DNA of 64,000 bases from an uncultured Methanosarcinales archaeon (GTDB lineage Archaea > Nanobdellota > Nanobdellia > Woesearchaeales > GW2011-AR15): the NCBI GenBank assembly GCA_964552005.1, contig CAZKFC010000002.1, positions 35,188-99,187 of the forward strand, written 5' to 3'. How positions within the stretch are numbered: position 1 is the first letter of the stretch; each line of letters starts with the position of its first letter. Shown piece after piece: positions 2,172 through 32,577 of the stretch. Below the pieces are notes generated by a model. That model did not search any database. It saw only the letters and a program-made list of their open reading frames with translations, and had not been told where the DNA came from. A program made the translations under genes and the position numbers.

Positions 2172-5100
2172 TTATTCTGGTATAAGGCACTGATGCCACC
2201 AATCCCCGTAACTGCCTTTTGTTTGATAACAGTTTTCCACACTGTAATCACAATATTCGGCTGTTCCACAAATATGGACTTTTGCTTTTGTGGACTCTAA
2301 ACTTGGCTCACATAGTATCATCGCAACATATTCTTTTCCATCAATCGTGACAAAATCACCTATAAGACCTTCTTTAACTGTTCCATCTGCATCAGGACAA
2401 TGTTGTGGTAAATCCAATGTTTTTTCAAAACAATCTTCAATACCATGATAGATATAATTAATTCCATTAACTGGTGTTTTACTTTCAGGCGTTTCAGATG
2501 GCTCATCATATGTACCATCTTCATCACAGCCAAAGCATTTGTAAACAACATTATTAGAACCAACTTCACTCCCTAAATTCTGTAATCTTATTGTAAGATT
2601 AATACAAGGTCCTCCTGGCACAGGTTCTTCAATGCCGCATTCTGTTATTGGAGTATCGAGCTGGCCCAATCTGTTATAAATGTCTTTGCCAACACATTCA
2701 TTTTCGCATAATTCAACTGTCCAACTATAATTTATTAGAGACTCTGAAGTTACTGTTTCATCACCTAAATGGAAAGGTATTACTGCTAATATATTAGCAT
2801 CAGTTAACCAATTATCAAAAGATAGTTCCATTTCATCAGCATAATCATCAGCTTCATAATCTGGCAAATCTGGCTGTACAATATCTGGATGCGGGCCCCA
2901 CGCTGTTTCTGTAATCATAATTTTGCCAATGCATAATTCGTCTGGCTGGCAAACAACTGCTGTATTTTCTGTGCTTGCTGTATTTGGACATAAATCAATA
3001 TCATCATCATATCCGTCATTATCAGAATCTTGGCATGCGTCTCCTATGCCGTCATTATTCCAATCTTTTTGCAATGGGTTTGGGTCATTAGCACAGTTAT
3101 CACAGACATCTCCTATGCCATCACCGTCTTCATCTTCTTGATTAAGTTGGCATTTTCCACTATCACATTGGTCATCAGACAAACAAGTTATAGTATGATC
3201 GTTTTTGCAAGTTCCCAAGTCAGGTCCATTTGGCGTATACATGCAGTTATCAACACAATCTATTGTAATGTCTTGAATATCATTATAAACACATTTTTGT
3301 GTAAATCCAATCTCCGGAATACCGTCATCGTCTGTATTATCATCACATTTATCGCCAATATCATCATTATCTAAATCTTTTTGGTCTCTATTTGGTTTAT
3401 CCACACAGTTATCACAAGTGTCTGCCCACCCGTCACCATCTATGTCAGTTCCTTCTTGTATTGTGTTATCATCTGGACATTTATCATCAATGTCTAAAAC
3501 ACCATCGCTATCATAATCTTCACACGCATCACCATAATCATTGTTATTCCAGTTCAATTGATTTTCATTTGGTGTGTTAATACAATTATCTTCTGTATCT
3601 TTAATTCCGTCATTATCTGTGTCTTGTGCATCAATTGCTGTACATTTTATATTGAAGTCTTGTGTTTGGCTGCATAATGATTTTACTAGTTTAAACCTAT
3701 CTTTGTAGGCCTGCATACCAAAGGGATTAGAACCGCCCGGATATGTATCAATATCATCTACAGAAGGATATGAGTGGTCTGCGTATAAATCCATTAAACT
3801 ACACACTTGTGCACCATAATCAATATCAGATAACATTTTAGTTAAATAGCTATTAGTATCAACCTCAACATTTTTTTCATAGCAGAATTTTTGGAATGTT
3901 TCTTTAATTCTCTGTTGTATTACTTTTGCTTTGTCGACTTCTGCCATATCACAACTTTCTACAGGGATATTTAAATCAGAAAAAACATGTTCAAAATCTG
4001 TTTTATAAAAATCATACCAGCTCAAGATGTGTTTGATATAATTCTTTTTTGGACTGCATATACAATTTTCTCTTTCTTGTTGTGTATTAAAACAATCAGT
4101 TTCTATATATAATTCATCATCACATTCTGGATCAACATTAGTGTCACAACGATTACAAACAGGGTCACAAGAAGGTGCAACATAATTGTCAGGTGTTTCA
4201 CCTGTACAATAATTCTTATCTCCGCTCAAATAGTCTGTCATATATCCCAATAATTCACAATCAGCTTTTGTAAAACTATATTGCTCAGCACCTCCATTAT
4301 ATTTTTCAACCATATCAAATGTGGATGGTTCTCCATGTGTATCTTTAGCATAATAAGGGCTTAACTCACATTTTTGTTGTCCAGTAGTTGGTGCTAACCC
4401 TGCAGGCATTATTTTTATAGAATTACCATGCGGCAAGGCTTTTATAGCAGACGCCATCTCAACAAAATATCGTGCATATTGTTTAATTTCATAATCTGTA
4501 ACAGAAATATCGTTCCATTCTTTAGCTAAGTTAGGTTCTTCACCTATTTCTATATACAAAGTCCATTCAGGTTTATCTGCATGTATTCTGTTAATTAACT
4601 CAACTGCTTTATCAATATCAGTAGTATAATCATATATAGGAATGCCTGTTGTTCCATCTTCATCCTCACCATAAATACAGTCTAAATTATCTGCACACTC
4701 TCCTGGATGTTTAGAAAAATCGTTTGCTTTTTCTTTTTTTAATGTAATAACAGGTATTAGTTCTTGATCATAGATTTTATTAAACACAGTTTCATAAAAC
4801 TCAAGATAATTATCTACATCAGGGTCATAATATGTTATTAATTTGACATAGCCACATGGACCGCTAAATTGGTTTGAGCATGCCAAATCCCTGTCAACTA
4901 TTAAATCGGCAAAATCTGAATCTTCATACAAAATATCATGAAACATAACTTGCAGACCTTGTTTAACAGAGCCTTCACAGCTTGCAGACCACTCAGATAA
5001 ATGTGGCGTAGATGTTTTTACTTTGTTTTTTTCAACATCTGCAGAACTCTCAACTGTTACCCAATGGTTGTCTTTCAGATAAGCAAGTTTAAAAGATTCT

Positions 5101-5819
5101 TCAACAGCAGCTCCTGACACATGGTTATCCTCATATCTTATTGTCAATAAAGCATCTGGAGAGAATTCAATACTTTCAGGAGTAAATTCATATTTTACTT
5201 TTCCTAAAACAGAAGGATCATCTGGACATTCTTCTTTAACATAAACTTGAATCTCATCTAAACCTGGTGTTACTTTTGTACCTTTTTTAATACTTAACTC
5301 TAAATCCAAATCTGGACTTACCAACACCTGGTCTTTAACTGTTTTTGAATTTGTGTCAAGTTCTAAAGAAAGTGATTTTGTTCGGGGTAATGATAAACTA
5401 GATTTTTCAAATTTTACAACTGTATCATCTCTAGAAAATTGCATGGGATACACAATATCAACAATAATTTCTTCTTCTGTTATGCGGACATCAATTTTAT
5501 CTGGCCTGCTTTTGGCAGTAACCTCATAGCCTTTCCTCCTATATTTATCAAAACCAATACATGTTGACATCCCTCTATTGATTGTTCCCTTAATATCATT
5601 TTCTTCACACAAACCATAATCATCAATAGACTTTAATAGCAAAGTATATAAACAATCATCAAACTGGCTTCTCAAAGAACTTTGAGTGACAGTTGTTGGT
5701 GTCTCTCGGGTAAGCTGTTGTTTTTTAACAACTGTGCTCCTGTATGCAAAAAAACTTATCATAAGTATTAATAAAATACCAATTATGACATATATTGTAA
5801 CTTGAGATTTAGATTTCAT
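2172..5819 (-). CDS. Giant (1215 aa) secreted or membrane-anchored Cys-rich protein with multiple thrombospondin type-3-like Ca-binding repeats and a possible TIM-barrel glycosidase-like middle domain.
   Basis: N-terminal hydrophobic anchor 'VIIGILLILMISFFAY'. Repeated DxDxDGxxDxxDxC motifs (e.g. 'DTDNDGIKDTEDNC', 'DIDGDGWADTCDNC', 'DEDGDGIGDVCDNCANDPNPLQKDWNNDGIGDAC'). 'IEIGEEPN' resembles the GH5 NEP motif (weak). Confidence 0.7.
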   Translation of the reverse strand: MKSKSQVTIYVIIGILLILMISFFAYRSTVVKKQQLTRETPTTVTQSSLRSQFDDCLYTLLLKSIDDYGLCEENDIKGTINRGMSTCIGFDKYRRKGYEVTAKSRPDKIDVRITEEEIIVDIVYPMQFSRDDTVVKFEKSSLSLPRTKSLSLELDTNSKTVKDQVLVSPDLDLELSIKKGTKVTPGLDEIQVYVKEECPDDPSVLGKVKYEFTPESIEFSPDALLTIRYEDNHVSGAAVEESFKLAYLKDNHWVTVESSADVEKNKVKTSTPHLSEWSASCEGSVKQGLQVMFHDILYEDSDFADLIVDRDLACSNQFSGPCGYVKLITYYDPDVDNYLEFYETVFNKIYDQELIPVITLKKEKANDFSKHPGECADNLDCIYGEDEDGTTGIPIYDYTTDIDKAVELINRIHADKPEWTLYIEIGEEPNLAKEWNDISVTDYEIKQYARYFVEMASAIKALPHGNSIKIMPAGLAPTTGQQKCELSPYYAKDTHGEPSTFDMVEKYNGGAEQYSFTKADCELLGYMTDYLSGDKNYCTGETPDNYVAPSCDPVCNRCDTNVDPECDDELYIETDCFNTQQERENCICSPKKNYIKHILSWYDFYKTDFEHVFSDLNIPVESCDMAEVDKAKVIQQRIKETFQKFCYEKNVEVDTNSYLTKMLSDIDYGAQVCSLMDLYADHSYPSVDDIDTYPGGSNPFGMQAYKDRFKLVKSLCSQTQDFNIKCTAIDAQDTDNDGIKDTEDNCINTPNENQLNWNNNDYGDACEDYDSDGVLDIDDKCPDDNTIQEGTDIDGDGWADTCDNCVDKPNRDQKDLDNDDIGDKCDDNTDDDGIPEIGFTQKCVYNDIQDITIDCVDNCMYTPNGPDLGTCKNDHTITCLSDDQCDSGKCQLNQEDEDGDGIGDVCDNCANDPNPLQKDWNNDGIGDACQDSDNDGYDDDIDLCPNTASTENTAVVCQPDELCIGKIMITETAWGPHPDIVQPDLPDYEADDYADEMELSFDNWLTDANILAVIPFHLGDETVTSESLINYSWTVELCENECVGKDIYNRLGQLDTPITECGIEEPVPGGPCINLTIRLQNLGSEVGSNNVVYKCFGCDEDGTYDEPSETPESKTPVNGINYIYHGIEDCFEKTLDLPQHCPDADGTVKEGLIGDFVTIDGKEYVAMILCEPSLESTKAKVHICGTAEYCDYSVENCYQTKGSYGDWWHQCLIPE

Positions 5820-10158: not shown

Positions 10159-11133
10159 TTACGCCAGAATGTCCAGTGCAACTTTTTGTCCTGGTGCCAA
10201 ATTATGCCTCTCACTAAACCCTGCCTTAACTTCAATAACATATAACGCGGGTTCATCTGGATCATATAAATCACATGGCTCTTCTGTACAAGGCTCTACT
10301 CTTTTATGAATTGTAACTATTTCTTTATTTTCATTAAGAAAAATAATATCTATGGGAATCTTCATGTTCTTCATCCAGTACTTATATTGTCCTGGTTGTT
10401 CAAAAACAAATAACATAGCGTCTTTCTCATCTAAATTATCTCGGAACATTAATCCCAGGGTTCTTTCTTCTGGCGTATCTTTAATTTCCAGATTAACACA
10501 GTATCCATCAGAAAAACATGCTTTGTCATTGTTATCTGTTAATGGGATAAAAAAGAGTAATGTAATAAGCAACATAATTATTAAAATAAAGATTAATTTT
10601 GTACTATTATGTTTCAACTGAAAAATAGATTTTTTTTCCATATTATGTAATTGTAACAGCAATTTTTCTGTTAAACTATATAACATTATAATTACGTATA
10701 AGTATATTAAAATTCTGCTTTCCACAAAAATATTTATAATAACAACAACAGGAAATAGTATGGCAGCAAGTAAAGCAGCATAGTTTCTCATGAAAATTAA
10801 TTTTTCAGTTTTTACTTTACTTATAATCTGGATAATAACAAAATAACTAAATAAGAAAATACCTACAAAAAGATATTTTTTAATTAAGTCTGCTTTTAAA
10901 AAATAAAAACTTACAACTGAACAAAGCACAATAAAGTTGTCAGCAATAACATCAAATTTTTTCCCAAAAAGTGTTGTTAATTTTAATTTTCTAGCTATAA
11001 AACCATCCAATACATCTGTAATTAAAGCCGAACAATAACTTATCACAAAACCAAGTATGTCTCCAATATAAGCAAAACATATCATAATCAGACCAAGTAA
11101 TAATCTGGAAAAAGTGATGATGTTTGGCAACAT
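10159..11133 (-). CDS. Fusion protein: N-terminal CDP-alcohol phosphatidyltransferase (membrane) joined to a C-terminal DUF192 (COG1430) domain.
   Basis: 'DVLDGFIARKLKLTTLFGKKFDVIADN' matches D-G-x2-A-R...G-x3-D-x3-D. C-terminus 'TLGLMFRD...AMLFVF...YWMKNMKIPIDIIFLN...YVIEVKAG' is DUF192-like. Confidence 0.62.
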   Translation of the reverse strand: MLPNIITFSRLLLGLIMICFAYIGDILGFVISYCSALITDVLDGFIARKLKLTTLFGKKFDVIADNFIVLCSVVSFYFLKADLIKKYLFVGIFLFSYFVIIQIISKVKTEKLIFMRNYAALLAAILFPVVVIINIFVESRILIYLYVIIMLYSLTEKLLLQLHNMEKKSIFQLKHNSTKLIFILIIMLLITLLFFIPLTDNNDKACFSDGYCVNLEIKDTPEERTLGLMFRDNLDEKDAMLFVFEQPGQYKYWMKNMKIPIDIIFLNENKEIVTIHKRVEPCTEEPCDLYDPDEPALYVIEVKAGFSERHNLAPGQKVALDILA

Positions 11134-11403: not shown

Positions 11404-12966
11404 TTGTTAAAATTTTCAAAAGATTTATTAAAGACTCTATATACTAATTTCTCTATAAAAAAGGGGTATTATATGGAAACAAGAGCTATTGATTCTTATC
11501 AGCTTATGGTTAATGAGACAATTCCCTTACAAATTCATATATACAGCCAAAAAGGAAAGGCCGTGCCGTTCTACCATTTATCTTTATTGGATATTACTGA
11601 TGAAACTAAAAGGATTATAGAGAGGATAAGAGAAGATATCATAACAAGTTTAAGTTTTGAGTTAACTAAGAAAAAAACAAAAGAAGGCGAAGAAGAGATA
11701 AAAGAACAGTTTCAAAAAAAACTTAAAGAAATTATAAAGACGCAATTTTCAGATTTAAAAGAGAAAGATATTGGTTTAATAACAAATTACATAATAGTAA
11801 CCAGTCTAGGATTGGCAGAGATTGAGTTTTTATTAAAGGATGCTGAACTTGAAGAAATTGTTGTTAATTCATCAAAAGATCCTGTCTGGGTCTACCATAG
11901 AAAATACGGTTGGTTAAAAACCAATATTGTGTTCAAACAAGAGAATAAAATTAGGCATTTTTCAACTTTAATAGGAAGAAATGTAGATAAAAACATTAGT
12001 TTATTAGAACCATTATTAGATGCACATCTAAAATCTGGGGACAGGGTAAACGCTACATTAAGCCCAATAACTACAAAAGGCAATACAATAACAATAAGAA
12101 AATTTTCTAAGACACCATGGACAATAACTCATTTCATAAAAAATAAAACTATAGATTATACTTCTGCAGCCCTTATATGGCAGGCTATACAATATGAATT
12201 ATCAATATTAATAGCAGGCGGAACAGGCTCAGGAAAAACTTCTTTTCTTAATGTAATAAGCAATTTTTTTCCTCCTAATCAAAGGATTATATCTATTGAA
12301 GATACCCGTGAGCTTAGATTGCCCAAAACCCTACATTGGGTCCCTATGCAGGCCCGTCTACCAAATCCAGAAGGCAAAGGCGAAATTACCATGCTAGATT
12401 GTATGATTAATACTTTAAGGATGCGTCCAGATAGAATAATAGTTGGAGAAGTTAGACGTGAGAAAGAACTTGAAGTTATGTTTGAAGCAATGCACACAGG
12501 CCATTCTGTTTACAGCACGTTTCACGCTAGCAACATAGATGAAGCTATAGCCAGACTAACAAATCCGCCTATTAATTTGCCAAAACAATTGCTTTCCTCA
12601 ATAGGCCTAATTGTTGTACAACATCGGAATAGAAGAACTGGAAAAAGAATTACTTTCCAGATAGCAGAAATAAATGAATTAGGCCAGCCCGTATTATTGC
12701 TACAGCATGATTATCTCGGAGATACTATGAAACAAGTTAATTCGCCAAACAGAATTTTAAAAACATTAAACATGTATACTGGCATGTCAACAAAACAGAT
12801 ATACGCAGACATACAAGAGAAAGTTGCGGTATTAGAATGGCTTGTAAAGCAAAACATTACAGACATCAATATAATAGGATTAATAATGAGTGATTATTAC
12901 ACAGAAAAACAGCACATTATATCTTTAGTACAAACAAACAGCCCATATAAGTCAATAGGTGAATAA
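11404..12966 (+). CDS. Type IV pilus or archaellum assembly ATPase (FlaI/TadA/PilB-like).
   Basis: Walker A 'GGTGSGKTS', 'IISIEDTRELRL' and His-box 'FEAMHTGHSVYSTFHA'. Confidence 0.8.
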   Translation: MLKFSKDLLKTLYTNFSIKKGYYMETRAIDSYQLMVNETIPLQIHIYSQKGKAVPFYHLSLLDITDETKRIIERIREDIITSLSFELTKKKTKEGEEEIKEQFQKKLKEIIKTQFSDLKEKDIGLITNYIIVTSLGLAEIEFLLKDAELEEIVVNSSKDPVWVYHRKYGWLKTNIVFKQENKIRHFSTLIGRNVDKNISLLEPLLDAHLKSGDRVNATLSPITTKGNTITIRKFSKTPWTITHFIKNKTIDYTSAALIWQAIQYELSILIAGGTGSGKTSFLNVISNFFPPNQRIISIEDTRELRLPKTLHWVPMQARLPNPEGKGEITMLDCMINTLRMRPDRIIVGEVRREKELEVMFEAMHTGHSVYSTFHASNIDEAIARLTNPPINLPKQLLSSIGLIVVQHRNRRTGKRITFQIAEINELGQPVLLLQHDYLGDTMKQVNSPNRILKTLNMYTGMSTKQIYADIQEKVAVLEWLVKQNITDINIIGLIMSDYYTEKQHIISLVQTNSPYKSIGE

Positions 12967-13106: not shown

Positions 13107-13763
13107 ATGCAATTAAAATTGCCTTATTATTTTCTTACAATAATTTTTGCTATTTCATTTTTATTAATATTCCAATTAATAAAATTAATCCCTTCATTCA
13201 GTGTGCAAAATAAACGTGCATTACTTGAATCAGATTTATTATATAGTACTAGGCACTTATTATTAAAATTAGAAAGCGGTTCTTCTTTGCTTAACGCGTT
13301 AGAAAGTGTTTCAAAATTAAAGACAAATTCAAGTGTTTTTTTCAAAGAAATAATTTATGATGTGTCTCTGGGAATGCCAATTGAAAAGGCATTAGAAAAA
13401 GCAATTGAATACAGCCCAAGCAAAGCTTTTACTAAAATAATTGAGGAAATACAAACCTCTTTGGTAACTGGAGCAGATTTGCAGAAAACATTAAAATCAA
13501 CATTAAAAGATGTAACAAGACAGCACCTAATAGCAATACAAGAATATGGTAAAAAACTTAATCCCATGTCTATGTTTTACATGATTATTGGCACAATAGT
13601 TCCTTCTTTGGGAACAGCAATGACAGTTGTAGCCACAAGTTTGTTACCGGGTGCAATAATAATTGACAGGCGAATTTTAATGTTTATAGCTGGTTTATTA
13701 TTAGTAATACAGATTTTTTTCATATTAGGATTTAAATCATTGAAGCCAATGGTGATTGAATAA
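13107..13763 (+). CDS. TadB/TadC/FlaJ-like pilus platform membrane protein (first of two). The true start may be the in-frame TTG at 12987, which adds one more TM helix.
   Basis: T2SS-F-like hydrophobic pattern. It sits immediately downstream of the ATPase. The in-frame upstream extension encodes the TM-like segment 'LVFTFSFIGSILLTLFGLLFV'. Confidence 0.55.
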   Translation: MQLKLPYYFLTIIFAISFLLIFQLIKLIPSFSVQNKRALLESDLLYSTRHLLLKLESGSSLLNALESVSKLKTNSSVFFKEIIYDVSLGMPIEKALEKAIEYSPSKAFTKIIEEIQTSLVTGADLQKTLKSTLKDVTRQHLIAIQEYGKKLNPMSMFYMIIGTIVPSLGTAMTVVATSLLPGAIIIDRRILMFIAGLLLVIQIFFILGFKSLKPMVIE

Positions 13764-14767
13764 TGTTTTATGGATTAGGAAAAGCAATTTTACCAGATAA
13801 AATAAGTAAACATATTAAGAAATATGTTCAAAAAACTGGCTTATATAACGTGCCTTATTCATTATATGGAAGTTTATTTGTATTATCAATCTTAGTTTCA
13901 ATAGGCGTCTATGTTTTTTTTGTATTTCCAAGTTTAAAAACAGCCAATCCAATTGTTTTAGGATTAGGATCGTTTATTGCACTTACAGTAATTGATTTAA
14001 TTTTAATAACTATAATTGCTTTAGTATTATGGTTGTACTATGAATTTATAATCTTTAATAGAGTTAGGCAGATTGAAGATGTTCTGCCAGATTTTTTGCA
14101 AGAAGTTTCTGTTAATTTACGAGCAGGAATGAGTTTTGACAAAGCTTTGTGGAATAGTATGGAGCCGGAATTCGGTGTATTAGAAACAGAAATAGAAACA
14201 GTTGCAAAGAAAGTCATGACAGGTAAAGATACTGAGCAAGCATTAAAAGAATTTTCTCAAAAATATAATTCAACATTGCTACAAGAATCCATGGACATGA
14301 TTATTGTTGGATTAAGATCTGGTGGCAACATATCTGATTTAATAGACAGGATAGTTGATAATGTCAAAGACGCGTATTACTTAAGAAAAGAATTAATTGC
14401 TTCTGTCACAAGTTATGTTATTTTTATTGCATTTACTGCTGTTTTGATATCTCCAACACTGTTTGCATTATCCTTTAATTTAATGGAAATAATCCAAGGA
14501 TTAGGAGAAAAATTATCCACTACAAGTTCTTATGGTGTGCTGCCTTTTAATGTGGGTTTTAAAAGCATTAACCCTGAAGATTTTATTTTGTTTTCAAAAA
14601 TTTCTGTTATTATAATATCAACAATATCTGCGATGATAATTGCAGATTTGCGTGAAGGAAGTATAAAAGCAGGCCTTAAATATTTACTGGCTTTTATACC
14701 ATTGGCTTATTTTACATATATTGGCATGTTAACAATATTCACAAGTATTTTTGGAATCATAATTTAG
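13763..14767 (+). CDS. TadC/FlaJ-like pilus platform membrane protein (second of two).
   Basis: Polytopic protein with a cytoplasmic helical domain (T2SS-F-like). Its start overlaps the stop of the upstream gene (ATGA). Confidence 0.6.
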   Translation: MFYGLGKAILPDKISKHIKKYVQKTGLYNVPYSLYGSLFVLSILVSIGVYVFFVFPSLKTANPIVLGLGSFIALTVIDLILITIIALVLWLYYEFIIFNRVRQIEDVLPDFLQEVSVNLRAGMSFDKALWNSMEPEFGVLETEIETVAKKVMTGKDTEQALKEFSQKYNSTLLQESMDMIIVGLRSGGNISDLIDRIVDNVKDAYYLRKELIASVTSYVIFIAFTAVLISPTLFALSFNLMEIIQGLGEKLSTTSSYGVLPFNVGFKSINPEDFILFSKISVIIISTISAMIIADLREGSIKAGLKYLLAFIPLAYFTYIGMLTIFTSIFGIII

Positions 14768-15198
14768 AAACTAATAGTATCATCTAATTTAGTTTTACTT
14801 TTTTTAATAGTGCCTTGAGGCAGTTCAATTACATAACTAGCTTTGTTTTTAGAAACATAGATAGTAAAGGGTTTAAAATTTTCCTTAATTTCTATTACTC
14901 TTTTATTATCATCTAAAAACAAAACATCTATAGCATAAAAAACAAAGAACATGTGTAAATCTATTTTTTTTGGCTTTGAAAATTTAAATATATAACCAAT
15001 ATCAAGAATCTTTTTAGAAAACATTAATCCTTTTGCTCTTGAAAGAACACTGGAAAGAATTTTTTTATTTTCAACTAATACAGAATTTTTAGTTTTATTC
15101 TTAATCATTTTAGCAGGGACTTTTTGATAAATCATTAACACCGTACAAAATGAGATGATCATTCGGCACTCGTTCAATCCTAAACAATTCACGAACAT
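14764..15198 (-). CDS. Stand-alone DUF192 (COG1430) domain protein.
   Basis: 'RAKGLMFSKK...LHMFFVFYAIDVLFLD...YVIELPQG' parallels the C-terminal domain of the 10159..11133 product. Confidence 0.5.
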   Translation of the reverse strand: MFVNCLGLNECRMIISFCTVLMIYQKVPAKMIKNKTKNSVLVENKKILSSVLSRAKGLMFSKKILDIGYIFKFSKPKKIDLHMFFVFYAIDVLFLDDNKRVIEIKENFKPFTIYVSKNKASYVIELPQGTIKKSKTKLDDTISF

Positions 15199-16108
15199 CT
15201 GTATCTAAGTCAGTAAAATCACAGTAATCTTTACCAATGCCCGTTGTTGTTTGTTCACCAAAATAGAGATAATCAATAACAGACCTGTTCTTTTTCAAAA
15301 GTCCTTGCTCAAACAACTCTTCGACATTCACCATGCTCTCAATTCCAAAGGGTGATGATGATAAATTACCAGTAAATCTCATTAAGAAACTTGGCGCATC
15401 TGTATGATTAATATAATAAGAATTTAACAAATGCCCTTCTAAAATAGTAGTATCATTATTAGGACCAATAAAAGTCATATTTGGCGTAATGTTTACTAGA
15501 TTAGTAACTTTGTCTGAGGTTTCAACCGTATAAAGCGGATCTTCAAACCCAATTATCGAAAATTCTTGTTTGTATTCTTTATCAAAAACCCATGATGCCA
15601 GACCCTTAACATCGCTTATGTTTATGGTTGCGTTAAGCCTTACTTCAACCGTCCAAGGTGTTATATGTTGGATACTTACTTCATGGACTTTTACTGAAGT
15701 AATAATATTAAGTTCATCTGCTTCTTCATTTACTCTGGCAACCCAACTATTAATGTCTGCACCCTGTGTTTCCTGTCTCATTAAGCTCATTGTAATATTA
15801 CCATTGTCTGCTGTTCCATTTACCAATATCTCTGTAAATGTTTCGTCAAGATCTGTTACATAACCTTGGATTTGTCTAACGTAAGCGTTCATACTGATTA
15901 GTGCCCTATATCCTCCTATGAATAACTCCCTTTCCAAATCTTCATCAAAATCTTGGATAAAATTGTTCATTGTTTTAACTCTTGAATATATTGCACTGCT
16001 TCTTTCTCTATATCTATATGTATCTTTAGTAGTTACAACTGCCACCACCAAGATAATAACAAACAATGCTATAAATGTAAAAAACACGCCCTTATTATTT
16101 ATCTCCAT
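15110..16108 (-). CDS. Pilin-like protein with a class III signal peptide-like N-terminus.
   Basis: 'MEINNKGVFFTFIALFVIILVVAVV'. It overlaps the upstream giant pilin by 10 nt, which suggests translational coupling. Confidence 0.5.
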   Translation of the reverse strand: MEINNKGVFFTFIALFVIILVVAVVTTKDTYRYRERSSAIYSRVKTMNNFIQDFDEDLERELFIGGYRALISMNAYVRQIQGYVTDLDETFTEILVNGTADNGNITMSLMRQETQGADINSWVARVNEEADELNIITSVKVHEVSIQHITPWTVEVRLNATINISDVKGLASWVFDKEYKQEFSIIGFEDPLYTVETSDKVTNLVNITPNMTFIGPNNDTTILEGHLLNSYYINHTDAPSFLMRFTGNLSSSPFGIESMVNVEELFEQGLLKKNRSVIDYLYFGEQTTTGIGKDYCDFTDLDTDVRELFRIERVPNDHLILYGVNDLSKSPC

Positions 16109-19100
16109 ACTCTTACCTCAGCTAATGCAGGTCCCCATGGATATGGGATTTTACCAACTGAAATTGCGCCAATAACAAAATTTTGTTCTTCAATATTAAC
16201 ATATATACGGCCGTCATCATCAAAATCTAAGTTATCAAGTAAATTATACATTGCATCATCATACGTATCATTAGCATCATAACTTATAGAAGCGTTTGTG
16301 TAATAACATTGTTTTGTGCCTGTATATGTTGGCGGTACATCCACTGTTGTATTTTCTCCATCTTCAAATTCAATAGACCATTCACAACCGATGGCTTTTT
16401 CTAAAACATCGCTATATGAAACAGAAGCTGTAAATTGCGCAGTATAAATCAAGGTATTATTTTTAGAACATTCAGTATAATTTAAAGGTGAATCACCTGT
16501 TCTAATGAAAAAACTATTGTTACCTGCTTGCAATGTTGGCACAGGTATATTAACTAAGAACGGATCACCCATGGCTGTATAATCTGTTGAATAATCACTT
16601 AGATTATATACAGAATTATTGTTTACTATTAAAGCATCTGTCCAGTGTTCAGATGAATATGACGTTAACTTTGAGTTTGAAACACGGACATCTCCAGGAA
16701 TATATACATTGAAAGAACAGCCTGGGAAATTTTTTTCTTCTACGATAATTGAAATTTCGCCAAACTCTGGCGGGTCTACTAATGGATCATATTCTATATC
16801 TATATTAGAGTCACCATATAAAATACTTTCAGAGATATCTCCTGAACCTTCAATTTCAATCGTCTGTGAATGTCTAGTAGCAGAGATTATTGTAGAGGCA
16901 ACATCCTGATAAAATTGCTGCAGAGCAGTAATATTATCGCTTTTTCTATATATACCATTACCGCAATCTGCTATACCCTGTAAAGTTGTTTCATCAGCAT
17001 TATCACTAAAGCCAACAGCATAAACTGTAATACCATACTCTTGCCTAGCATCACAAGCTGCCTGGATAGCATCCTGGATAGCGTCTCCTGTTCCTTGCTG
17101 AGCGCATTGCCTATTTGCAACACCGTCTGTCATGACCATTATTGCATCTTCCCTTGTGTCATTTAATATTATTAATTCTAAATCAAATTTGGCTGCTCTT
17201 GCAGTATTTGATAAGTCAACAGCAACAACATTATCGCCTTGCTTAAAATATTCTCTTGGCACTTGTATACCGCGAGCATTCCAATATTGGGCAAAACTTG
17301 GATTTGGACTTATATATATTAGTTGGCCATTCAAATATACTTTTGCTGTATCATCATACAAAACATTAAGAACTCCTCTTCCAACTTGATTTAAATCCGC
17401 AACATTAAAGTGTTTTCTAAAATAATAATGGTTTGTTTTATTAGTAATTTTTAACTCAATGTTGTCAAATCTCCACCAGCCGTATTCTTGACTTTCAGAC
17501 GCTCGTAATTTCCCGCCAAGTTCAAGATAATAATTTCCTGGACCTGTTATCCATGGAGAAACGTCTTGGCTGTATGTGCCTGAAAATTCTGCATCGGGAT
17601 TATCCATTGTAAAAATCTCAGGATCATTATCAGAGCCACCATCATTAGCATCTAAGTCTGTACCAAGATAATTTGAACTTGTTGAGCTGGACCATCTAGC
17701 TTTTACCCAGACTTGGTCAGATGTTTCAAAAGGATTGTCATTACCATCCCATTCATAATTAAATGAGAGGATTGCTGCTCCGTTTGCCTGTATTAAATTG
17801 TACATTTCCTGCGTAATATTGATTTCTATACCATACGCACCAGAACAATCATAATTCGAGCAATCATTTTGTGTAATGTCATTATCCATTTCCAATACTT
17901 TGTTAGGTCCAACAGTTACAACTTGATTATAATCAATGTTATCATCAAAACCAAATACACCATTATTATCTAATGTGTCCCAGTCCCAGCCGTCATCATT
18001 TCCAGTAATACCAAAAGTATTGGCAGTTGAATTTAAAACACCTGATGAAAAGTCGTTAGGCGGTCCTGTAATATCTCCAGTATTTTCCCATAGATTTGCA
18101 TAGATTGCATCTGGGTCAAGTTCTTCAAATTCTAATTGTATATTATCAAACCTAAATGTGCCCCATTCTGTATTCTCACTTGCAAGTAATTTCCCACCTA
18201 TAGCCAAATAATATAATCCTGGCCCTTCTATAAAGGAGGTAATTTCTTGTGAATATGTGCCAGAAAAGTCTGTATCAGGATTAGTACGTCTGTCAACTTC
18301 TAAAGTTGTATCTCCTCCAGAAGAAGATAATTCCGCACCTAAATAATTAGTGCCAGAGGTAGGACTCCACCAGTAAGATTTTATCCAGACTTCATCTGTG
18401 CTTTCAAAGGGATTGTTGTCATTACCGTCCCAGTTATAGTTAAAAGAAATCTTTACTTTTCCTCCGTTTACTACAGCATTATATAATTCAGAAGTTATGT
18501 TAATGGCTATGCCATAAGCACCACTACAATCAAAATTTGTACACGCATTACTGCCAGCAACACTTGTATTAAACTCTAACTGTCCGTTAACTATCTCGTT
18601 ATAGCTAATATCGTCATCATATCCAAAAGGGCCTGAACCATCATTATTATTATCATAATCCCAGCCGTCATTATTGCCCGTGCTGCCGAACGTATTAGCT
18701 GTATAATTTAATATGCCAGATGAAAAGTCATTGGGTGGCCCGGGATTATCTAAATTATGTTCCCATAAATTTGCATAAGAAGTATTTCCTGCTAAAGAAC
18801 TGCCAATTTCTGTATCTACAATAGGGCTATAGACAAATCCATTAGTAGAACCATAAATAGCATTATCACTATAAGACCAATCTGATTCATTATCATAATT
18901 ATTATGATACCATGAATCTCCGTCATCATCTACAGGCGGCGGACTAAGAAAATAATTAGTAGTGTAATACCATTGCTCTTTTGACTGAATAACTGTGTTT
19001 TTTGAAATATTCTCTGTTAATATTGCAACAGCACTATTTATACCGCAGCATACACAAGTCGCGCCGCTGCCTTCATATCCTGTTTCTGGTACAGCTGTTC

Positions 19101-20550
19101 CGATTGTCTGATTTAATATATCAAAATTCGTCGTAGGATATACTGTCTCAAATGCATGTGTAGTATCATCATAAGAAATTAAACCTACTTGGTTTCCAGT
19201 TATGTTTAATATATCTTTTGAAAACTGTTTATCAAGACATTTAGCTACACTTAGCCTTGCTGTGCTTGAATCATTAAAATTTGCATCATCACAATTGCGT
19301 GCAGTGCCTGTATTATCACTATCCATACGCCAATCCATACTTCCAGACACGTCTGTTACTAATGTAACATCGGCATTTCCCTCAAAGATAAAGCCAAAAC
19401 TTACATTTTCAAAGCCAACTCGTATAGGCACGGTTTTAGCATTCATTGATGACAAGGCAATATATTTAGTAATGTTCTGCACAGTTACTGTGTGGTTTTT
19501 CTCTCCTGTTAAATTACTATCTTTATAGACGGTTGAATTTCCTATTGTCAAATAAAAAGTATTATTTGTGGCATTTGTGGCATTAACAAAATAATGTAGA
19601 TAAACTGATATGTTGTTTAGTGTTCCTGGAACATAAAAGGAAGAGTATAAATTAATTATGCCTTCTATATTGGGAAGCCATTCTTTTAGCGCATATTTTA
19701 ATGGTTCTTGCTGAAGAACATCTGTTTGGTAATCTACTCTTATAAAACCACCTCCAATAAATGCTTCTCCTAAATCACCTAAAAACGAAATTGAAAAATT
19801 ATTTTTTGCACCCTCGGCTAAAGAATTATCGCAACTGCTTATATCCCATGCATCTGCAGTCATTGTACCTGTACCTGCACTATAAATTCCGCCACACTGC
19901 ACACCATTTATATCTAAATTAAAATCAGAGCCAGCATCAAGTTCTAAATATAATCCTGTGATATTAATATCAGATGGTAAGACTATAAACCCTGAAATAT
20001 TGCCTTGACCAACGAAACCTCCAAAATACAGGTAAGAAGAATATTTTTTCCTTCTAATTCCTTTTAAATAAACTTTTGATGTTGCTCCTCTTAATGGCTT
20101 AAACTTTTCTATGCCGGATATTAATCTTCGGGAAGAAACTAATTCATCTTTTTTCCCTGTTGGAGAATCATTCAGATAAATAGACTCGCCATTTACCAAA
20201 ATCTCAAAACCAAATTTATCTGGGATTAATTTTTCACTTACAATAATAGACAAATTTCTAGCCAACTCAGTTTTGTTCAAAACATAAAATTCGCCAATTT
20301 GTTCTATAACTGAATTATTAAGATTGATTATTTCACCTGAACTTATAAGAGACTGTATGTAAGAATCATTAACTTCTGTAATCTTTATATTAGATAGGCT
20401 TGCCACAATGTCCTGGGAATAATAGTTTATTTGTGGTTGTTGTATTTCTGAAATGAAATATTTTGATGAAAGTATTAGAGCCATGCCTATTAAAATTGTG
20501 GCAAACAACGCATCTAAAGTAAAAAAATATCCTTTCTTCATTCTTGCCAC
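16099..20550 (-). CDS. Giant pilin-like adhesin (1483 aa): class III signal-like N-terminus, a vWA domain apparently interrupted by a large insertion, and a tandem duplication of about 225 aa.
   Basis: 'MARMKKGYFFTLDALFATILIGMAL'. MIDAS 'DVSGSM' near aa 400. Second-half vWA motifs 'AIMVMTDGV...GITVYAVGFS' near aa 1135. Repeats begin 'YANLWEHNLDNPGPPNDFSSG' (aa 592) and 'YANLWENTGDITGPPNDFSSG' (aa 817). Confidence 0.7.
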   Translation of the reverse strand: MARMKKGYFFTLDALFATILIGMALILSSKYFISEIQQPQINYYSQDIVASLSNIKITEVNDSYIQSLISSGEIINLNNSVIEQIGEFYVLNKTELARNLSIIVSEKLIPDKFGFEILVNGESIYLNDSPTGKKDELVSSRRLISGIEKFKPLRGATSKVYLKGIRRKKYSSYLYFGGFVGQGNISGFIVLPSDINITGLYLELDAGSDFNLDINGVQCGGIYSAGTGTMTADAWDISSCDNSLAEGAKNNFSISFLGDLGEAFIGGGFIRVDYQTDVLQQEPLKYALKEWLPNIEGIINLYSSFYVPGTLNNISVYLHYFVNATNATNNTFYLTIGNSTVYKDSNLTGEKNHTVTVQNITKYIALSSMNAKTVPIRVGFENVSFGFIFEGNADVTLVTDVSGSMDWRMDSDNTGTARNCDDANFNDSSTARLSVAKCLDKQFSKDILNITGNQVGLISYDDTTHAFETVYPTTNFDILNQTIGTAVPETGYEGSGATCVCCGINSAVAILTENISKNTVIQSKEQWYYTTNYFLSPPPVDDDGDSWYHNNYDNESDWSYSDNAIYGSTNGFVYSPIVDTEIGSSLAGNTSYANLWEHNLDNPGPPNDFSSGILNYTANTFGSTGNNDGWDYDNNNDGSGPFGYDDDISYNEIVNGQLEFNTSVAGSNACTNFDCSGAYGIAINITSELYNAVVNGGKVKISFNYNWDGNDNNPFESTDEVWIKSYWWSPTSGTNYLGAELSSSGGDTTLEVDRRTNPDTDFSGTYSQEITSFIEGPGLYYLAIGGKLLASENTEWGTFRFDNIQLEFEELDPDAIYANLWENTGDITGPPNDFSSGVLNSTANTFGITGNDDGWDWDTLDNNGVFGFDDNIDYNQVVTVGPNKVLEMDNDITQNDCSNYDCSGAYGIEINITQEMYNLIQANGAAILSFNYEWDGNDNPFETSDQVWVKARWSSSTSSNYLGTDLDANDGGSDNDPEIFTMDNPDAEFSGTYSQDVSPWITGPGNYYLELGGKLRASESQEYGWWRFDNIELKITNKTNHYYFRKHFNVADLNQVGRGVLNVLYDDTAKVYLNGQLIYISPNPSFAQYWNARGIQVPREYFKQGDNVVAVDLSNTARAAKFDLELIILNDTREDAIMVMTDGVANRQCAQQGTGDAIQDAIQAACDARQEYGITVYAVGFSDNADETTLQGIADCGNGIYRKSDNITALQQFYQDVASTIISATRHSQTIEIEGSGDISESILYGDSNIDIEYDPLVDPPEFGEISIIVEEKNFPGCSFNVYIPGDVRVSNSKLTSYSSEHWTDALIVNNNSVYNLSDYSTDYTAMGDPFLVNIPVPTLQAGNNSFFIRTGDSPLNYTECSKNNTLIYTAQFTASVSYSDVLEKAIGCEWSIEFEDGENTTVDVPPTYTGTKQCYYTNASISYDANDTYDDAMYNLLDNLDFDDDGRIYVNIEEQNFVIGAISVGKIPYPWGPALAEVRVWR
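17428..18777 (-). repeat. Intragenic tandem duplication (two units of about 675 nt / 225 aa) inside the giant pilin gene.
   Basis: The two units align along their full length ('...NDFSSG.LN.TANTFG.TGN.DGWD.D...DCSGAYGI.INIT.E.YN....G....SFNY.WDGNDN.PFE..D.VW.K..W....S.NYLG..L...DG......D.PD..FSGTYSQ.....I.GPG.YYL..GGKL.ASE....G..RFDNI.L'). Confidence 0.55.
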
Positions 20551-21710
20551 AGTACCACCTTCATTGCAATAATTTCAGATATGCCGTCATGTTTATAAAC
20601 AACATATCTTGTTAAGGCTATTAATTTTTCTGGATTGGATGCTTTTACATCGTTAATAGAGGAAAGGTTTTGTGCTGTTGCAAAAGGATATGCTAAGCCA
20701 TTGCCGGAGTTGTACAATCTACCAATCTCATTTAAATCTAACGCCCTGTTCCATATCCCAATTTCATCAATTTTTCCGTCAATAATCAACGACTCTGACG
20801 TGGTTGAAAGAATATGTAAACCATTACTTCCCACATTTAATGTGTTTGTATTTATATCTGTATCTCCAAGCACTCCGTTCTTATAATATTTAAATTCATT
20901 AGTTGTAGAATCATGCGTAATCGCAATGTGTTGATAGATTGAATCATTTAATGTCCAGCCATCATTACATACTGTAGCTTTTCCCACAAGAACAAAAGCT
21001 ATTTTATGACCTGCTGAACAACCGTGAGAAGCAGTAGCTTCTTCTCTTATGCCCCATCCATCATCCATAAAGATGTATTCTCCATCGTCTTGTCCATTTG
21101 GTGAATACCAGAAACTTATAGTTAAATCTCCTGTTACATCAAAATCATCGTAATCTGGCGCTTCCAGAAATCCTGCACCATTACTTTCTCTACCGTCTCC
21201 AATAATTCCCGCTGTATTAGTTGTTCCTGAGTTCAATAAATCTATATTTCCTAATTCGTCTGAAAAATCATTATTGTTCAATTTATAGTATGCAATTAAA
21301 CCGTTTTCTAAAGTATCATTGCCTTTATAATTATCAAATCCCCACAAAACATTTCCTTCCTTATCTTCAAAATACACTAAAAAATCAGATTTTATTCCAA
21401 ACAAATTTTTTACTTTATTGCTATTCTTATTAGTAAGATTAATTAGATATTGCAGTTTGGTTGTATTTAAAATATTGCCCTTATCAACAACACCGGGTAT
21501 TAATACTGTGTCTTCTGTCCAGTTAGTGGGAATTCCCATTGTCAATAATGTTTCACTTAATTTTTCTGCTTCTGACAAAACATTGTTTGTTTCCTTACCT
21601 GGTATATAAAAATTGCTTGTAACAAATTTAAAGGCTATTATTAATATCAATGTAAATATAGTTACACCCATGATAAAATCAAAGTACCATATTTGGTTTT
21701 TTTTATTCAT
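20538..21710 (-). CDS. Pilin-like protein with a LamG/concanavalin-A-like lectin domain.
   Basis: N-terminus 'MNKKNQIWYFDFIMGVTIFTLILIIAF'. Central 'GLIAYYKLNNND...LLNSGTT...GAGFLEAPDYDDFD...LTISFWYSP' is LamG-like. Confidence 0.62.
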   Translation of the reverse strand: MNKKNQIWYFDFIMGVTIFTLILIIAFKFVTSNFYIPGKETNNVLSEAEKLSETLLTMGIPTNWTEDTVLIPGVVDKGNILNTTKLQYLINLTNKNSNKVKNLFGIKSDFLVYFEDKEGNVLWGFDNYKGNDTLENGLIAYYKLNNNDFSDELGNIDLLNSGTTNTAGIIGDGRESNGAGFLEAPDYDDFDVTGDLTISFWYSPNGQDDGEYIFMDDGWGIREEATASHGCSAGHKIAFVLVGKATVCNDGWTLNDSIYQHIAITHDSTTNEFKYYKNGVLGDTDINTNTLNVGSNGLHILSTTSESLIIDGKIDEIGIWNRALDLNEIGRLYNSGNGLAYPFATAQNLSSINDVKASNPEKLIALTRYVVYKHDGISEIIAMKVVLWQE

Positions 21711-21711
21711 T

Positions 21712-22059
21712 TTAACAGTTTAAACATAACACATTATTTTGGTTTGTAATTATATTATCTCCTTTTTGAATATATCCTGTTATGTTTGGTATTGAAAAAT
21801 AAACAACATTATCCGAATAATTTAACAATAGGATGTTGTTTATTATGGAAACTTCAAAATCAAACCCCTCCAATTTTTGTGGTATGTAAAATACCCGAGT
21901 ATAACCTGGCTTTGTTTGTTTAGCTATCAGGAACTCGTTCTGCAAACTGTAGCCATAATCCTCAAAAATAATCCTTTTTTTATCTCTTAAATTGTCTTGG
22001 TAGAGTTCTGAGAAAACAACTGTAAAGATTATTACCATGGTTGTTGCTGCCATTATCAT
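21712..22059 (-). CDS. Pilin-like protein. The annotated ATG lies inside the predicted class III signal; the conserved 'RKAQVSTEF' motif is encoded in-frame upstream (22060–22161) with no ATG/GTG/TTG.
   Basis: In-frame upstream translation '...IKFFEFQSSSGTLRKAQVSTEFIFMIMAATTMVIIFTVVF'. An in-frame stop lies at 22162–22164. Confidence 0.45.
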   Translation of the reverse strand: MIMAATTMVIIFTVVFSELYQDNLRDKKRIIFEDYGYSLQNEFLIAKQTKPGYTRVFYIPQKLEGFDFEVSIINNILLLNYSDNVVYFSIPNITGYIQKGDNIITNQNNVLCLNC

Positions 22060-22139: not shown

Positions 22140-22547
22140 TTATCCTGATATCGATACAACATCACCAGAAGATTCTATAACTATATAATGAATGCCGGGG
22201 TTAACAGAAATAGATCCTGTTAGATTAACTTGTGAAACTGAAACAATATCTTGAATGTGGTTTTTTGCTGTCCTATAACCAAAGATTATTGTCCGTGATG
22301 TTATATTAATGTAGTCTATCCGTTCTGGAAACTGTGTTTTTAAAGTGGTTTTAGACGGCTCTCCTAAGTAATATATTGTCTCTGCCTTATCTGTGATTTT
22401 TATGGCAATATTTCTTAGATGATTAGTCGCTATGGCATCCTGAACTGTGCCAGATTGATCAAAAAAAATAATTATTAAGGGAATAGTCATCAAAAAAACA
22501 AAACCGAATATCGTAATAAACTCAACACTAACTTGACCTCTTTTCAT
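22140..22547 (-). CDS. Archaeal type IV pilin (DUF361/EppA-substrate-like); a candidate major pilin.
   Basis: 'MKRGQVSVEFITIFGFVFLMTIPLIIIFF' has the KRG|QxSxEF class III signal and a hydrophobic N-terminal helix. 135 aa. Confidence 0.65.
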   Translation of the reverse strand: MKRGQVSVEFITIFGFVFLMTIPLIIIFFDQSGTVQDAIATNHLRNIAIKITDKAETIYYLGEPSKTTLKTQFPERIDYINITSRTIIFGYRTAKNHIQDIVSVSQVNLTGSISVNPGIHYIVIESSGDVVSISG

Positions 22548-30470: not shown

Positions 30471-31304
30471 ATGTATATAAAAAGTTTTGATGGGACAAGG
30501 ATTTATTATGAAAAGCATAGTTGTAAAAAACCTTTGGCTAGTCTTCTTTTAGTGCATGGTGGTTTTCACGGCAACCATACACGACTCAATAATCTAATCA
30601 AATATTTAAAAGATAATTATAACATAGTTGTCCCTGATTTACGAGGTAAGGGAGATTCTGATTTTCCAAAAGACCTTAAAAATGTAAAACTAGAAGATTA
30701 TGCCACAGATTTGTATGAAATACTAAAAAAAGAGAAGATTGGCAATATAAATGTGATTGGCACAAGTTTTGGCGGCCTTGTTTCATTAAAATTTGCCGAA
30801 ATGTTCAACCAGAAAATTAATATTGATAAAATTGTTTTAATATCTTCAATTCACAGGTTAGACAAAGTCAGGAGAAGGACCAAAATTGTTGCCCCATTTT
30901 ATAATTCCATATTTAATTTTGCTTCAATAATAGCAAAACCTTTGCCAGAGAAAAGAAAAGAACATGTTGATTATTCAAATCTGAACGGTAGGCTGCTAGA
31001 ACTAAAATACGGTGTTAAATTGATCAAGAATAATTCTTTAAAAACAACCACATTAAGATATAAGATGATGAAAGCAGCAAAAAAATATAAGCTGAAAATT
31101 GACGAATTAAAAAGAATTAATTCAAGAATTCTAGTTATTCATGGAAAAAAAGATTTGTATTTCCCTTTAAGAAATATTAAAGAGCTATTAGATAATACAA
31201 ACTCAGAATTAAAAATATTCAAGAAAGCCGGACATAATCTTTTTATCAGCCATGCAGAACCTGTCAGCCAAATAATACATGACTTTTTTCAAAAGCCTAA
31301 TTAA
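30471..31304 (+). CDS. Alpha/beta hydrolase.
   Basis: 'HGGFHG' and nucleophile elbow 'GTSFGG'. Confidence 0.62.
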   Translation: MYIKSFDGTRIYYEKHSCKKPLASLLLVHGGFHGNHTRLNNLIKYLKDNYNIVVPDLRGKGDSDFPKDLKNVKLEDYATDLYEILKKEKIGNINVIGTSFGGLVSLKFAEMFNQKINIDKIVLISSIHRLDKVRRRTKIVAPFYNSIFNFASIIAKPLPEKRKEHVDYSNLNGRLLELKYGVKLIKNNSLKTTTLRYKMMKAAKKYKLKIDELKRINSRILVIHGKKDLYFPLRNIKELLDNTNSELKIFKKAGHNLFISHAEPVSQIIHDFFQKPN

Positions 31305-32577
31305 TCGCCCATGACTGTTCATCAACCCCGGCATTAACCCTTGTTAAAGCGTGCCCTTGCTTTGCTTCTAACGCCCATAATCCTTCCCAAGCCACATAGT
31401 CTATTATATTATAAGCGAATTTTAATAACAAAATACCGTCTGTGTTTTTTAAAGAAAATTTTGGCTTTATTATTATAGTTTCATTTGGCTTTATTCTACC
31501 AGTTAATCTTGAATTTGTTTTATTATTGCTAATGAAAAAATAAGCTAAATTTAGTGTATTAGAACCTATATTTTTTAGCTCTATAAATTCATTATTTTTG
31601 TCGTTGCCAACTGCATCATACAACACTTTTGAAAAGAATAAATCTGTTGCAGTATTAGGAATTATTTCTTTATAATCATATAATTTATTAAACTCAACAA
31701 TATATTTTTCTGCAGTTTTACTATCATGTATGATTAAGAGATTTTCATCATTTCTTTCATTAGCATTTTTAGTTGGATTATATGATCCTGTAATGACTGT
31801 TTTATTATCTATAACGAAAACTTTATGGTGCATGATGTATTTGTTATTATCTGTTATAGAGAATTCTTTTAAATCATCATATCTTGAATAATCAGATATT
31901 TGTTTTTTCTCAAGAATGCCTTTAACATTAACACCAAGATAGTTTTTGTTCCAAAGTAAATTACCAATATCTTCATCTGTAAAGCTGTAAGTCATAAAAA
32001 ATATTGAATGGTTAGCAGCTTTCAATGCATTAATAACTCTAAGTTTACAATTGTCTTCAGGGCAGAAATAAGATTCTATCTTTATATTGCCCAAACTAAT
32101 CATTGGATATTTTACTTTTTTACCAGAACCATATTCATTATTTTTTAATTCTTCAAATTCATCCAAGTAATTTTCCGCTAAGTATTTTGATTTAATTATT
32201 ACAATGTTGTTATTATTGTAATAGTTACCACGCTCTGTTGGGTTCAGGCTTCCTGTCAATACTATGTTATTATCAAAAACACAGAATTTATTATGCATTA
32301 ATGCAGGAGAATAACCAGTTATGAAATCATCTAATGCATTTGAATCCTCTATAATCACTTCGACCTTTTTTTCTTTTAATTTTTCTATTAATTCTGGCAA
32401 ATCTAAATCATAAAATGCACATTTAATTTCATCAGACGAATCAATTAAATCAATGATTTTTTCCATGCACATGTCTTCAGGACAAAAAAACACATTAATT
32501 TCTGTATCAGATTCATAAACAACATTGCTAAAAGAACAAGATGTTAAAAAAAACAAAATTATTATCCACTTTCTCAT
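31297..32577 (-). CDS. Secreted phospholipase-D-family (Nuc-like) nuclease with a C-terminal lamin-tail domain.
   Basis: Signal peptide. Two HxK motifs ('HNKFCVFDN', 'HHKVFVIDN'). C-terminal 'NEFIELKNIGSNTLNL' is LTD-like. Confidence 0.68.
   Translation of the reverse strand: MRKWIIILFFLTSCSFSNVVYESDTEINVFFCPEDMCMEKIIDLIDSSDEIKCAFYDLDLPELIEKLKEKKVEVIIEDSNALDDFITGYSPALMHNKFCVFDNNIVLTGSLNPTERGNYYNNNNIVIIKSKYLAENYLDEFEELKNNEYGSGKKVKYPMISLGNIKIESYFCPEDNCKLRVINALKAANHSIFFMTYSFTDEDIGNLLWNKNYLGVNVKGILEKKQISDYSRYDDLKEFSITDNNKYIMHHKVFVIDNKTVITGSYNPTKNANERNDENLLIIHDSKTAEKYIVEFNKLYDYKEIIPNTATDLFFSKVLYDAVGNDKNNEFIELKNIGSNTLNLAYFFISNNKTNSRLTGRIKPNETIIIKPKFSLKNTDGILLLKFAYNIIDYVAWEGLWALEAKQGHALTRVNAGVDEQSWAIN

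Follow-up and report, generated by a model that had tools for sequence, protein, structure and literature searches.

The vWA gene and the two halves of its vWA domain

This study concerns a gene for a large protein with a von Willebrand factor type A (vWA) domain, located in a 64,000-nucleotide stretch of DNA from an uncultured Woesearchaeales archaeon (contig CAZKFC010000002.1 of assembly GCA_964552005.1, positions 35,188 to 99,187). This whole stretch, which is AT-rich with a GC content of about 31%, is called the window below. The vWA gene lies on the minus strand at 16099–20550. The open reading frame (ORF) of 1483 residues assigned to it in a preliminary description of the sequence is real, with the three motifs quoted there in place (DVSGSM at residues 400–405, MVMTDG at 1138–1143, and VYAVGFS at 1176–1182). 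This ORF begins with GTG; the likely true start is the ATG at codon 4 (nt 20541), which gives a protein of 1480 residues and was the choice of the gene callers in three assemblies, and the GTG is probably unused. Because the 1480-residue protein (P0001) is identical in three independent assemblies (ENA, JGI, and Logan), the gene is not an assembly artefact. It overlaps its upstream neighbor by 13 nt (20538–20550) and its downstream neighbor by 10 nt (16099–16108), which suggests translational coupling.

The protein opens with a pilin-like segment of the class III signal type (residues 4–30, 20461–20541), read from the sequence as MKKG followed by YFFTLDALFATILIGMALIL. On inspection this segment fits a short basic stretch, a Gly/Ala cleavage site, and a hydrophobic helix of ~20 residues, and its consensus, KKGxxFTxDAL, is kept across the vWA family, including the orthologues in L001 and L003. 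Residues 31–390 (19381–20460) form an N-terminal domain of unknown family, which is without a Pfam or NCBIfam match, is conserved in every length class of homologues, and is β-rich in the part that was modelled (284–383). The first half of the vWA domain follows at residues 391–514 (19009–19380), with β1, the DxSxS motif (D400, S402, and S404), α1, β2, β3, α2, T498, and α3. The second half lies far downstream at residues 1130–1225 (16876–17163) and contains β4 (AIMVMTDG, with D1142), α4, β5 (VYAVGF), α5, β6, and α6. The remainder, residues 1226–1483 (16102–16875), is a β-rich C-terminal region of unknown family with conserved Cys and Trp residues. Neither the N-terminal nor the C-terminal region, searched in isolation, gave a credible match in Pfam. 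An NCBIfam search with the whole protein returned nothing, and a phmmer search of the Protein Data Bank (PDB) with it returned a single GcvT-like match (E 0.03) that was spurious.

Two alternatives had been left in the preliminary description: either a vWA domain carrying a huge inserted β-rich module, or two separate partial vWA-like regions. The first was borne out, and the second is refuted. Residues 391–514 and 1130–1225 form one vWA domain, a conclusion drawn from in silico splicing, from the way a known vWA structure is matched, from homologues in which the halves are contiguous, and from the conservation of the metal ion-dependent adhesion site (MIDAS).

The intact protein matched the Pfam VWA family (PF00092) in two stretches scoring 37.1 bits, above the cut-off of 23.8. 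The best stretch, residues 1135–1215, corresponded to profile positions 105–173, and the region of residues 390–560 reached only to profile position ~104, so that a complete vWA domain is not contained within it. When residues 389–516 and 1130–1228 were spliced in silico, a single match covering positions 1–173 of the 174 in the profile was obtained, and the score rose from 37 to 54 bits; a VWA_2 match likewise spanned the junction. A profile built from 121 family members matched the PDB vWA chain 4rck (220 residues) in two pieces, residues 19–41 and 176–215, at the two ends of that one domain, and this was the only PDB match of the family profile at the level of sequence.

About eight homologues are only ~905 residues long. 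Residues 1–523 and 1130–1483 of the query align contiguously with these proteins, everything between being absent, and a loop of ~10 residues (such as '...AINLAYNLLNQYSNDSRSKFIVMMTDG') connects α3 to β4. One of them, P0109, has an unbroken VWA_2 match covering positions 1–106 of 107. The MIDAS residues D400, S402, and T498 are invariant in all 120 homologues compared, and S404 is present in 119. D1142 is found in 112 of the 120 alignment rows; the other eight belong to the short class and are misaligned there, their raw sequences carrying TDG or SDG. By sequence the MIDAS is thus complete (DxSxS...T...D, formed by D400, S402, S404, T498, and D1142), and metal binding is predicted.

An AlphaFold2 model of residues 284–1483, made with a 53-sequence subset of the 121-sequence alignment, had a mean predicted local distance difference test (pLDDT) score of 82.3. 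It contained not two unrelated domains but one vWA fold, aligned over 177 residues, with the elements in the order β1 α1 β2 β3 α2 α3 [insert] β4 α4 β5 α5 β6 α6, as in a six-stranded Rossmann-like α/β vWA fold. Contiguity, which is typical of vWA domains without being strictly defining, is broken by the ~615 residues between α3 and β4.

Two smaller features of the vWA domain were also seen. The DxSxS motif is separated from α1 by a further insert of ~25 residues (residues 405–432). Six cysteines are conserved in the family (C420, C438, C499, C502, C1149, and C1166), which suggests disulfide-stabilised loops around the MIDAS of an extracellular protein. The ~905-residue class, for example P0090 (L001 8001–10736), has a Cys-rich segment of ~50 residues directly after the TDG or SDG, within the loop that joins β4 to α4 at the MIDAS face; this segment, absent from the query, elaborates the same vWA domain in another way.

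The insert and its duplicated module

The insert occupies residues ~515–1129. It is therefore ~615 rather than 700 residues long, as first described, and it is wider than the two modules within it, since these are enclosed by a further domain. That domain, a galactose-binding-domain-like jelly roll, was recognized by its secondary structure in the models and is absent from the ~905-residue homologues. Its N part covers residues 515–591 (18778–19008) and its C part residues 1042–1129 (17164–17427), where the query reads YYFRKHF ... VYLNG, within the signature YYFRKxF ... DDxxxVYLNG. In the models, the cassette as a whole (pLDDT 86.8) is a jelly roll of the type found in glycoside hydrolase family 2 (GH2), split by two 225-residue β-sandwich modules.

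The jelly roll matches the β-jelly-roll fold of GH2 sugar-binding domains, and the best fold matches of the inserted domains together were to the sugar-binding domains of GH2 enzymes, many carbohydrate-binding modules (CBMs), and MAM domains. Against Pfam, the spliced jelly roll of the query gave only a weak match to Glyco_hydro_2_N2 (E 0.34); the equivalent region of the homologue P0091 matched BetaGal_ABD2 with 28.8 bits, against a cut-off of 23. The jelly roll is tied to α3 on one side and to β4 on the other by linkers of only ~4–5 residues. Helix-to-strand loops sit at the N-terminal edge of the sheet in canonical vWA topology, and on this basis the cassette would emerge opposite the MIDAS, on the same face as the termini of the vWA domain itself. 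The cassette is a discrete, optional unit, and homologues that do not have it contain a contiguous vWA domain. An intein or mobile element was considered as the source of the insert and dropped, as no Hint or intein matches were found and the insert consists of folded β-sandwich domains that are conserved as a set.

The two modules, defined by BLASTP self-comparison and by the model, lie in tandem on the minus strand: copy 1 at residues 592–816 (18103–18777) and copy 2 at residues 817–1041 (17428–18102). Copy 2 is the closer of the two to the single copy of one-module homologues. Their homology is far beyond chance (BLASTP E 1e-79), and the tandem duplication and its positions (residues 592 and 817; nt 17428–18777) had been described correctly. 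The copies are, however, not near-identical, as had been stated: protein identity between them is 56% and DNA identity 64%, and no identical run exceeds 13 nt. A nucleotide repeat search of the region found only patches of 74–76% identity. The 675-nt duplication was missed by Tandem Repeats Finder, its copies being too far diverged and its period longer than 500.

A profile of 28 diverse modules contained the conserved motifs DGWD, CSGAYG, WIKARW, and FDNI. Compared with Pfam and with PDB sequences, these 28 copies gave no family and no relative (best E values ~0.01–0.2, at the level of noise), and the profile itself gave against the same two databases a pectin lyase match (E 0.076) and scattered single matches that were likewise noise. 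Any resemblance of the module to the CBM or MAM type is thus predicted at the level of fold, outside the sequence families themselves. The module is rare: a profile search of 1.84 billion proteins found it in 138 cluster representatives. Outside the vWA family, it is present in large surface proteins of the FG-GAP/Big_7/PKD type, with FG-GAP repeats on either side; P0142, for instance, has FG-GAP_3 at residues 497–567, the module at 595–839, and FG-GAP at 858–897. Since it is placed between FG-GAP repeats elsewhere, the module behaves as an insertion-prone domain. Other proteins with the module include P0152, P0171, P0150, and P0197, which like P0142 are surface proteins with FG-GAP (integrin-α-like propeller) and Big_7/PKD domains, and three giants of 3448–6851 residues (P0156, P0175, and P0216). 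P0231, of 5796 residues, has a weaker module match (E 6e-9) in 10 partial stretches.

More than 500 homologues of the vWA protein were found, and module copies were counted in 120. The copy number varies, being 0, 1, or 2. About 8–9 proteins of ~905 residues have no module, about 95 proteins of 1240–1340 residues have one, and 14 proteins of ~1470–1510 residues, the query included, have two. In a further class of ~1615 residues, represented by P0091 (L003 8001–12845), a single module is interrupted at module position ~32 by ~340 residues that hold a sub-threshold InhA-like MAM match; this class has a third nesting level inside the vWA domain.

The five-gene operon and the neighboring T2SSE and T2SSF genes

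Five genes on the minus strand overlap or lie close together, and the fourth of them is the vWA gene. Gene 1 (22140–22547) is pilin-like, begins MKRGQ-VSVEF, and has orthologues of 138 residues in L001 and L003. It gave a weak, sub-threshold match to the Class_IIIsignal family (PF04021, E 0.009), the only such match in the set. Gene 2 (21712–22059) encodes 115 residues, and its position is conserved in L001, L003, and L005. Gene 3 (20538–21710) encodes a pilin-like protein of 390 residues with a Laminin_G_3 (ConA-like lectin) domain (E 8.8e-16). Because its positional orthologues in L001 and L003 are much shorter, with only 176–197 residues, a second protein of the operon has gained a lectin-like module as well. 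Gene 5 (15110–16108) encodes a pilin-like protein of 332 residues.

Four of the five products have an N-terminus in which a short basic stretch leads, through a G or Q, into ~20 hydrophobic residues, for instance MKRGQ-VSVEF, KKNQ-IWYFDF, MKKG-YFFTLDAL, and NNKG-VFFTF, the last being that of gene 5. Gene 2 as called opens directly with the hydrophobic stretch; its orthologue in L003 has the full motif. The order of the five genes and the N-terminal motifs also recur around a homologue of the short class (locus L001) and one of the long class (locus L003), and in every locus compared the vWA gene lay inside such an operon.

Just downstream of the operon, on the plus strand, lie a gene for an assembly ATPase of the T2SSE family (11404–12966; PF00437, E 1.3e-35) and two for membrane platform proteins of the T2SSF family, which are TadC/FlaJ-like (13107–13763 and 13763–14767; PF00482, E 1e-10 and 3.5e-13). 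In L003 the five-gene set is likewise followed by T2SSE and T2SSF genes. The vWA gene is thus associated in the genome with T2SSE, T2SSF, and other pilin-like genes.

Several other genes of the window were noted. The gene immediately downstream of the pilin-like operon (14764–15198, minus strand) encodes a DUF192 protein, and a DUF192 gene has this position in L001 and L005 too; a second DUF192 protein (10159–11133, minus strand) is fused to a CDP-alcohol phosphatidyltransferase domain. Another T2SSE-family ATPase, of 651 residues (216–2171, plus strand), adjoins a gene for a 1215-residue protein with thrombospondin type 3 repeats (2172–5819, minus strand); this pair may belong to another filament or secretion system, one that has a large surface protein of its own. 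The gene at 31297–32577 (minus strand) encodes a 426-residue protein with two PLD-like domains and a lamin tail domain.

Function, alternatives, and significance

The explanation that we favor as a whole, and consider probable, is that the gene encodes a large secreted surface protein of a DPANN archaeon (Woesearchaeota/Nanoarchaeota-type) with a single vWA domain carrying a nested insert, whose likely role is that of a type IV pilus adhesin. That role is suggested by the pilin-like N-terminus together with the conserved five-gene operon beside the T2SSE and T2SSF genes, and the label of pilin-anchored adhesin used in the preliminary description is, by sequence, plausible. The vWA protein would be cleaved by a prepilin peptidase and, with its four neighboring pilin-like proteins, incorporated into a filament resembling a type IV pilus, probably as part of its tip. 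The adjacent T2SSE ATPase and T2SSF platform proteins would assemble this filament. A partner or ligand would be bound through the conserved MIDAS face, and the nested lectin-like β-sandwiches would contribute glycan binding or a longer reach, as might serve attachment to a host cell or surface.

A number of observations weigh against this explanation. The vWA protein matched none of the curated pilin or class III signal models in Pfam and NCBIfam, and no peptidase A24 (prepilin peptidase) gene was found among the ORFs of the window that were scanned, a scan that was not exhaustive. Neither the jelly roll nor the modules of the query reached a curated Pfam threshold, so glycan binding by them is proposed from fold resemblance. 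The predicted template modelling score of the large AlphaFold2 model was 0.48, which leaves the geometry between domains uncertain, and where the insert stands with respect to the MIDAS face was deduced from canonical vWA topology rather than measured. Finally, the family is known so far from sequences and models.

A protein of the same vWA architecture might instead stand outside the filament, its N-terminus being a membrane anchor or signal peptide and its role one at the cell surface, at the pilus base, or as an anchor. We keep this as a serious rival, possible if somewhat unlikely, because Makarova et al. (2016) described archaeal vWA proteins near type IV pilus loci as potential regulators or modulators, and recorded the hypothesis that bacterial TadG-type vWA proteins anchor pili (PMC4858521). 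The failure of the pilin models of Pfam to match the protein agrees with such a role, as does its length, 1480 residues being very large for a pilin. An adhesin built into the filament, however, better accounts for the conserved KKG-(Y/I)FFT(L/I)DAL followed by ~20 hydrophobic residues, as in the small pilin-like proteins encoded next to it, and for the overlapping genes within a conserved five-gene operon.

A second rival concerns the insert. The β-sandwiches may be inert spacers or stalks that set the geometry of the vWA head rather than lectin-like domains that bind ligands, a view that we hold to be doubtful. They matched no curated carbohydrate-binding family at threshold and, by topology, would emerge opposite the MIDAS, both as expected of a spacer. 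Ligand-binding domains are nevertheless suggested by the fold matches to GH2 sugar-binding domains, CBMs, and MAM domains, by strongly conserved surface motifs of the module's own (DGWD, CSGAYG, and FDNI), by its recurrence as an insert in FG-GAP propeller surface proteins, and by the independent gain of the Laminin_G_3 domain in the neighboring gene.

The proposal that the repeats are a hotspot for length variation held over evolutionary time and failed at short range. Besides the range of copy numbers across the family, the module duplications of P0011 and P0048 are independent. In a tree of host-domain columns, the proteins lacking the cassette fall into one group and those with two copies are dispersed among those with one, so that copy number has been labile over evolutionary time. 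These observations would also suit a present-day hotspot in which recombination or slippage produces a phase- or length-variable adhesin. In the clade of the query, however, the first copies cluster together, and the second copies form another group that takes in the single copies of one-module proteins, which dates the duplication there as old. Full-length members of three 90%-identity clusters (1480 and 1480 residues; four of 1470; 1483, 1483, and 1473) show no module-sized difference. Taken with the copies' low DNA identity and short longest shared run, this argues against present-day recombination, and we regard such a hotspot as very improbable. The least credible alternative, to which we give next to no weight, is that the two vWA regions of the query are separate pieces brought together by gene fusion, degraded duplication, or assembly chimerism, as the fragmentary Pfam match of the intact protein might have suggested; the regions occupy complementary, non-overlapping parts of the profile that jointly make one full-length match, they are joined directly in the short homologues, and the architecture is kept in more than 100 homologues and in the three independent assemblies.

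The occurrence of vWA domains on pilus adhesins, domain insertions in general, and vWA domains with short arms (RrgA and PilB) are already known. In integrins, an αI vWA domain is inserted in a β-propeller, and a βI domain is inserted in the hybrid domain, itself inserted in the PSI domain. The query shares with integrins a nested "Russian-doll" layout involving a vWA/MIDAS adhesion domain, and a further link is the insertion of the 225-residue module among the FG-GAP repeats of integrin-α-like propeller proteins. The nesting is reversed, however: the vWA domain is the guest in integrins, whereas in the query it is the outermost host and jelly-roll β-sandwiches are the guests. PilY1 of Pseudomonas and others is a large vWA adhesin, presumably located at the pilus tip, whose gene belongs to an operon with several small minor pilins. 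It resembles the query in being a large vWA protein encoded among several small pilin-like genes, and differs in having a C-terminal β-propeller and no pilin-like N-terminus; the likeness drawn is one of gene setting rather than of sequence. The BatB-type bacterial vWA protein (PDB 3IBS) and 4RCK, unlike the query, are simple contiguous vWA domains of ~200 residues with no insert.

PilB of Streptococcus sanguinis (PDB 7B7P) is encoded in a type IV pilus locus and, like the query, has a class III signal or pilin-type N-terminus and, after it, a vWA domain whose MIDAS is canonical; its role as an adhesin has been demonstrated experimentally (PMC8179133). It is bacterial and has ~420 residues in the crystal structure, and its vWA domain is a contiguous C-terminal module whose MIDAS face is flanked by no more than two short arms. 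The query, in contrast, is archaeal, has 1480 residues and additional N- and C-terminal domains, and carries the nested cassette in its α3-β4 loop. RrgA, GBS104, SpaC, PitA, and Mfa5, of sortase or type V pili, also present a vWA/MIDAS domain on a pilus, with inserted elements and flanking β-sandwiches, in pilus assembly systems unrelated to that of the query. The inserted arms of the RrgA type are short and flank the MIDAS (PMC8179133), and they are unlike a nested multi-domain cassette on the opposite face. In the literature searched we found no account of a vWA domain hosting an insert of ~615 residues, nested to two or three levels, in the α3-β4 loop, and none of either this archaeal vWA family or the 225-residue module; absence there is no proof.

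For protein evolution, the family provides a clean natural series in which zero, one, or two modules, and a third nested domain, all occupy the same vWA loop; the α3-β4 loop can therefore accommodate nested insertions of very great length while the MIDAS is retained. A rare, previously unannotated β-sandwich module of 225 residues is defined by this work, and the split architecture explains why routine annotation gives weak, fragmentary, or absent VWA calls in these proteins.

DPANN archaea are mostly tiny symbionts that need attachment to other cells, and to our knowledge few of their attachment molecules have been identified. We suggest, tentatively, that the vWA family comprises host- or surface-attachment adhesins of type IV pilus-like filaments in DPANN archaea of the Woesearchaeota/Nanoarchaeota type, with the α3-β4 loop as an evolvable docking port and the module as an undescribed, insertion-prone domain family. 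Lectin-like β-sandwiches would have been repeatedly inserted in this loop, duplicated, and nested to three levels (vWA[jelly roll[module[MAM-like]]]), retuning the specificity of binding, and the same module would have invaded the FG-GAP β-propellers of other archaeal surface proteins. With its more than 500 homologues and its five-gene pilin-like operon, the locus is a concrete and widely conserved candidate for the means by which DPANN archaea attach.

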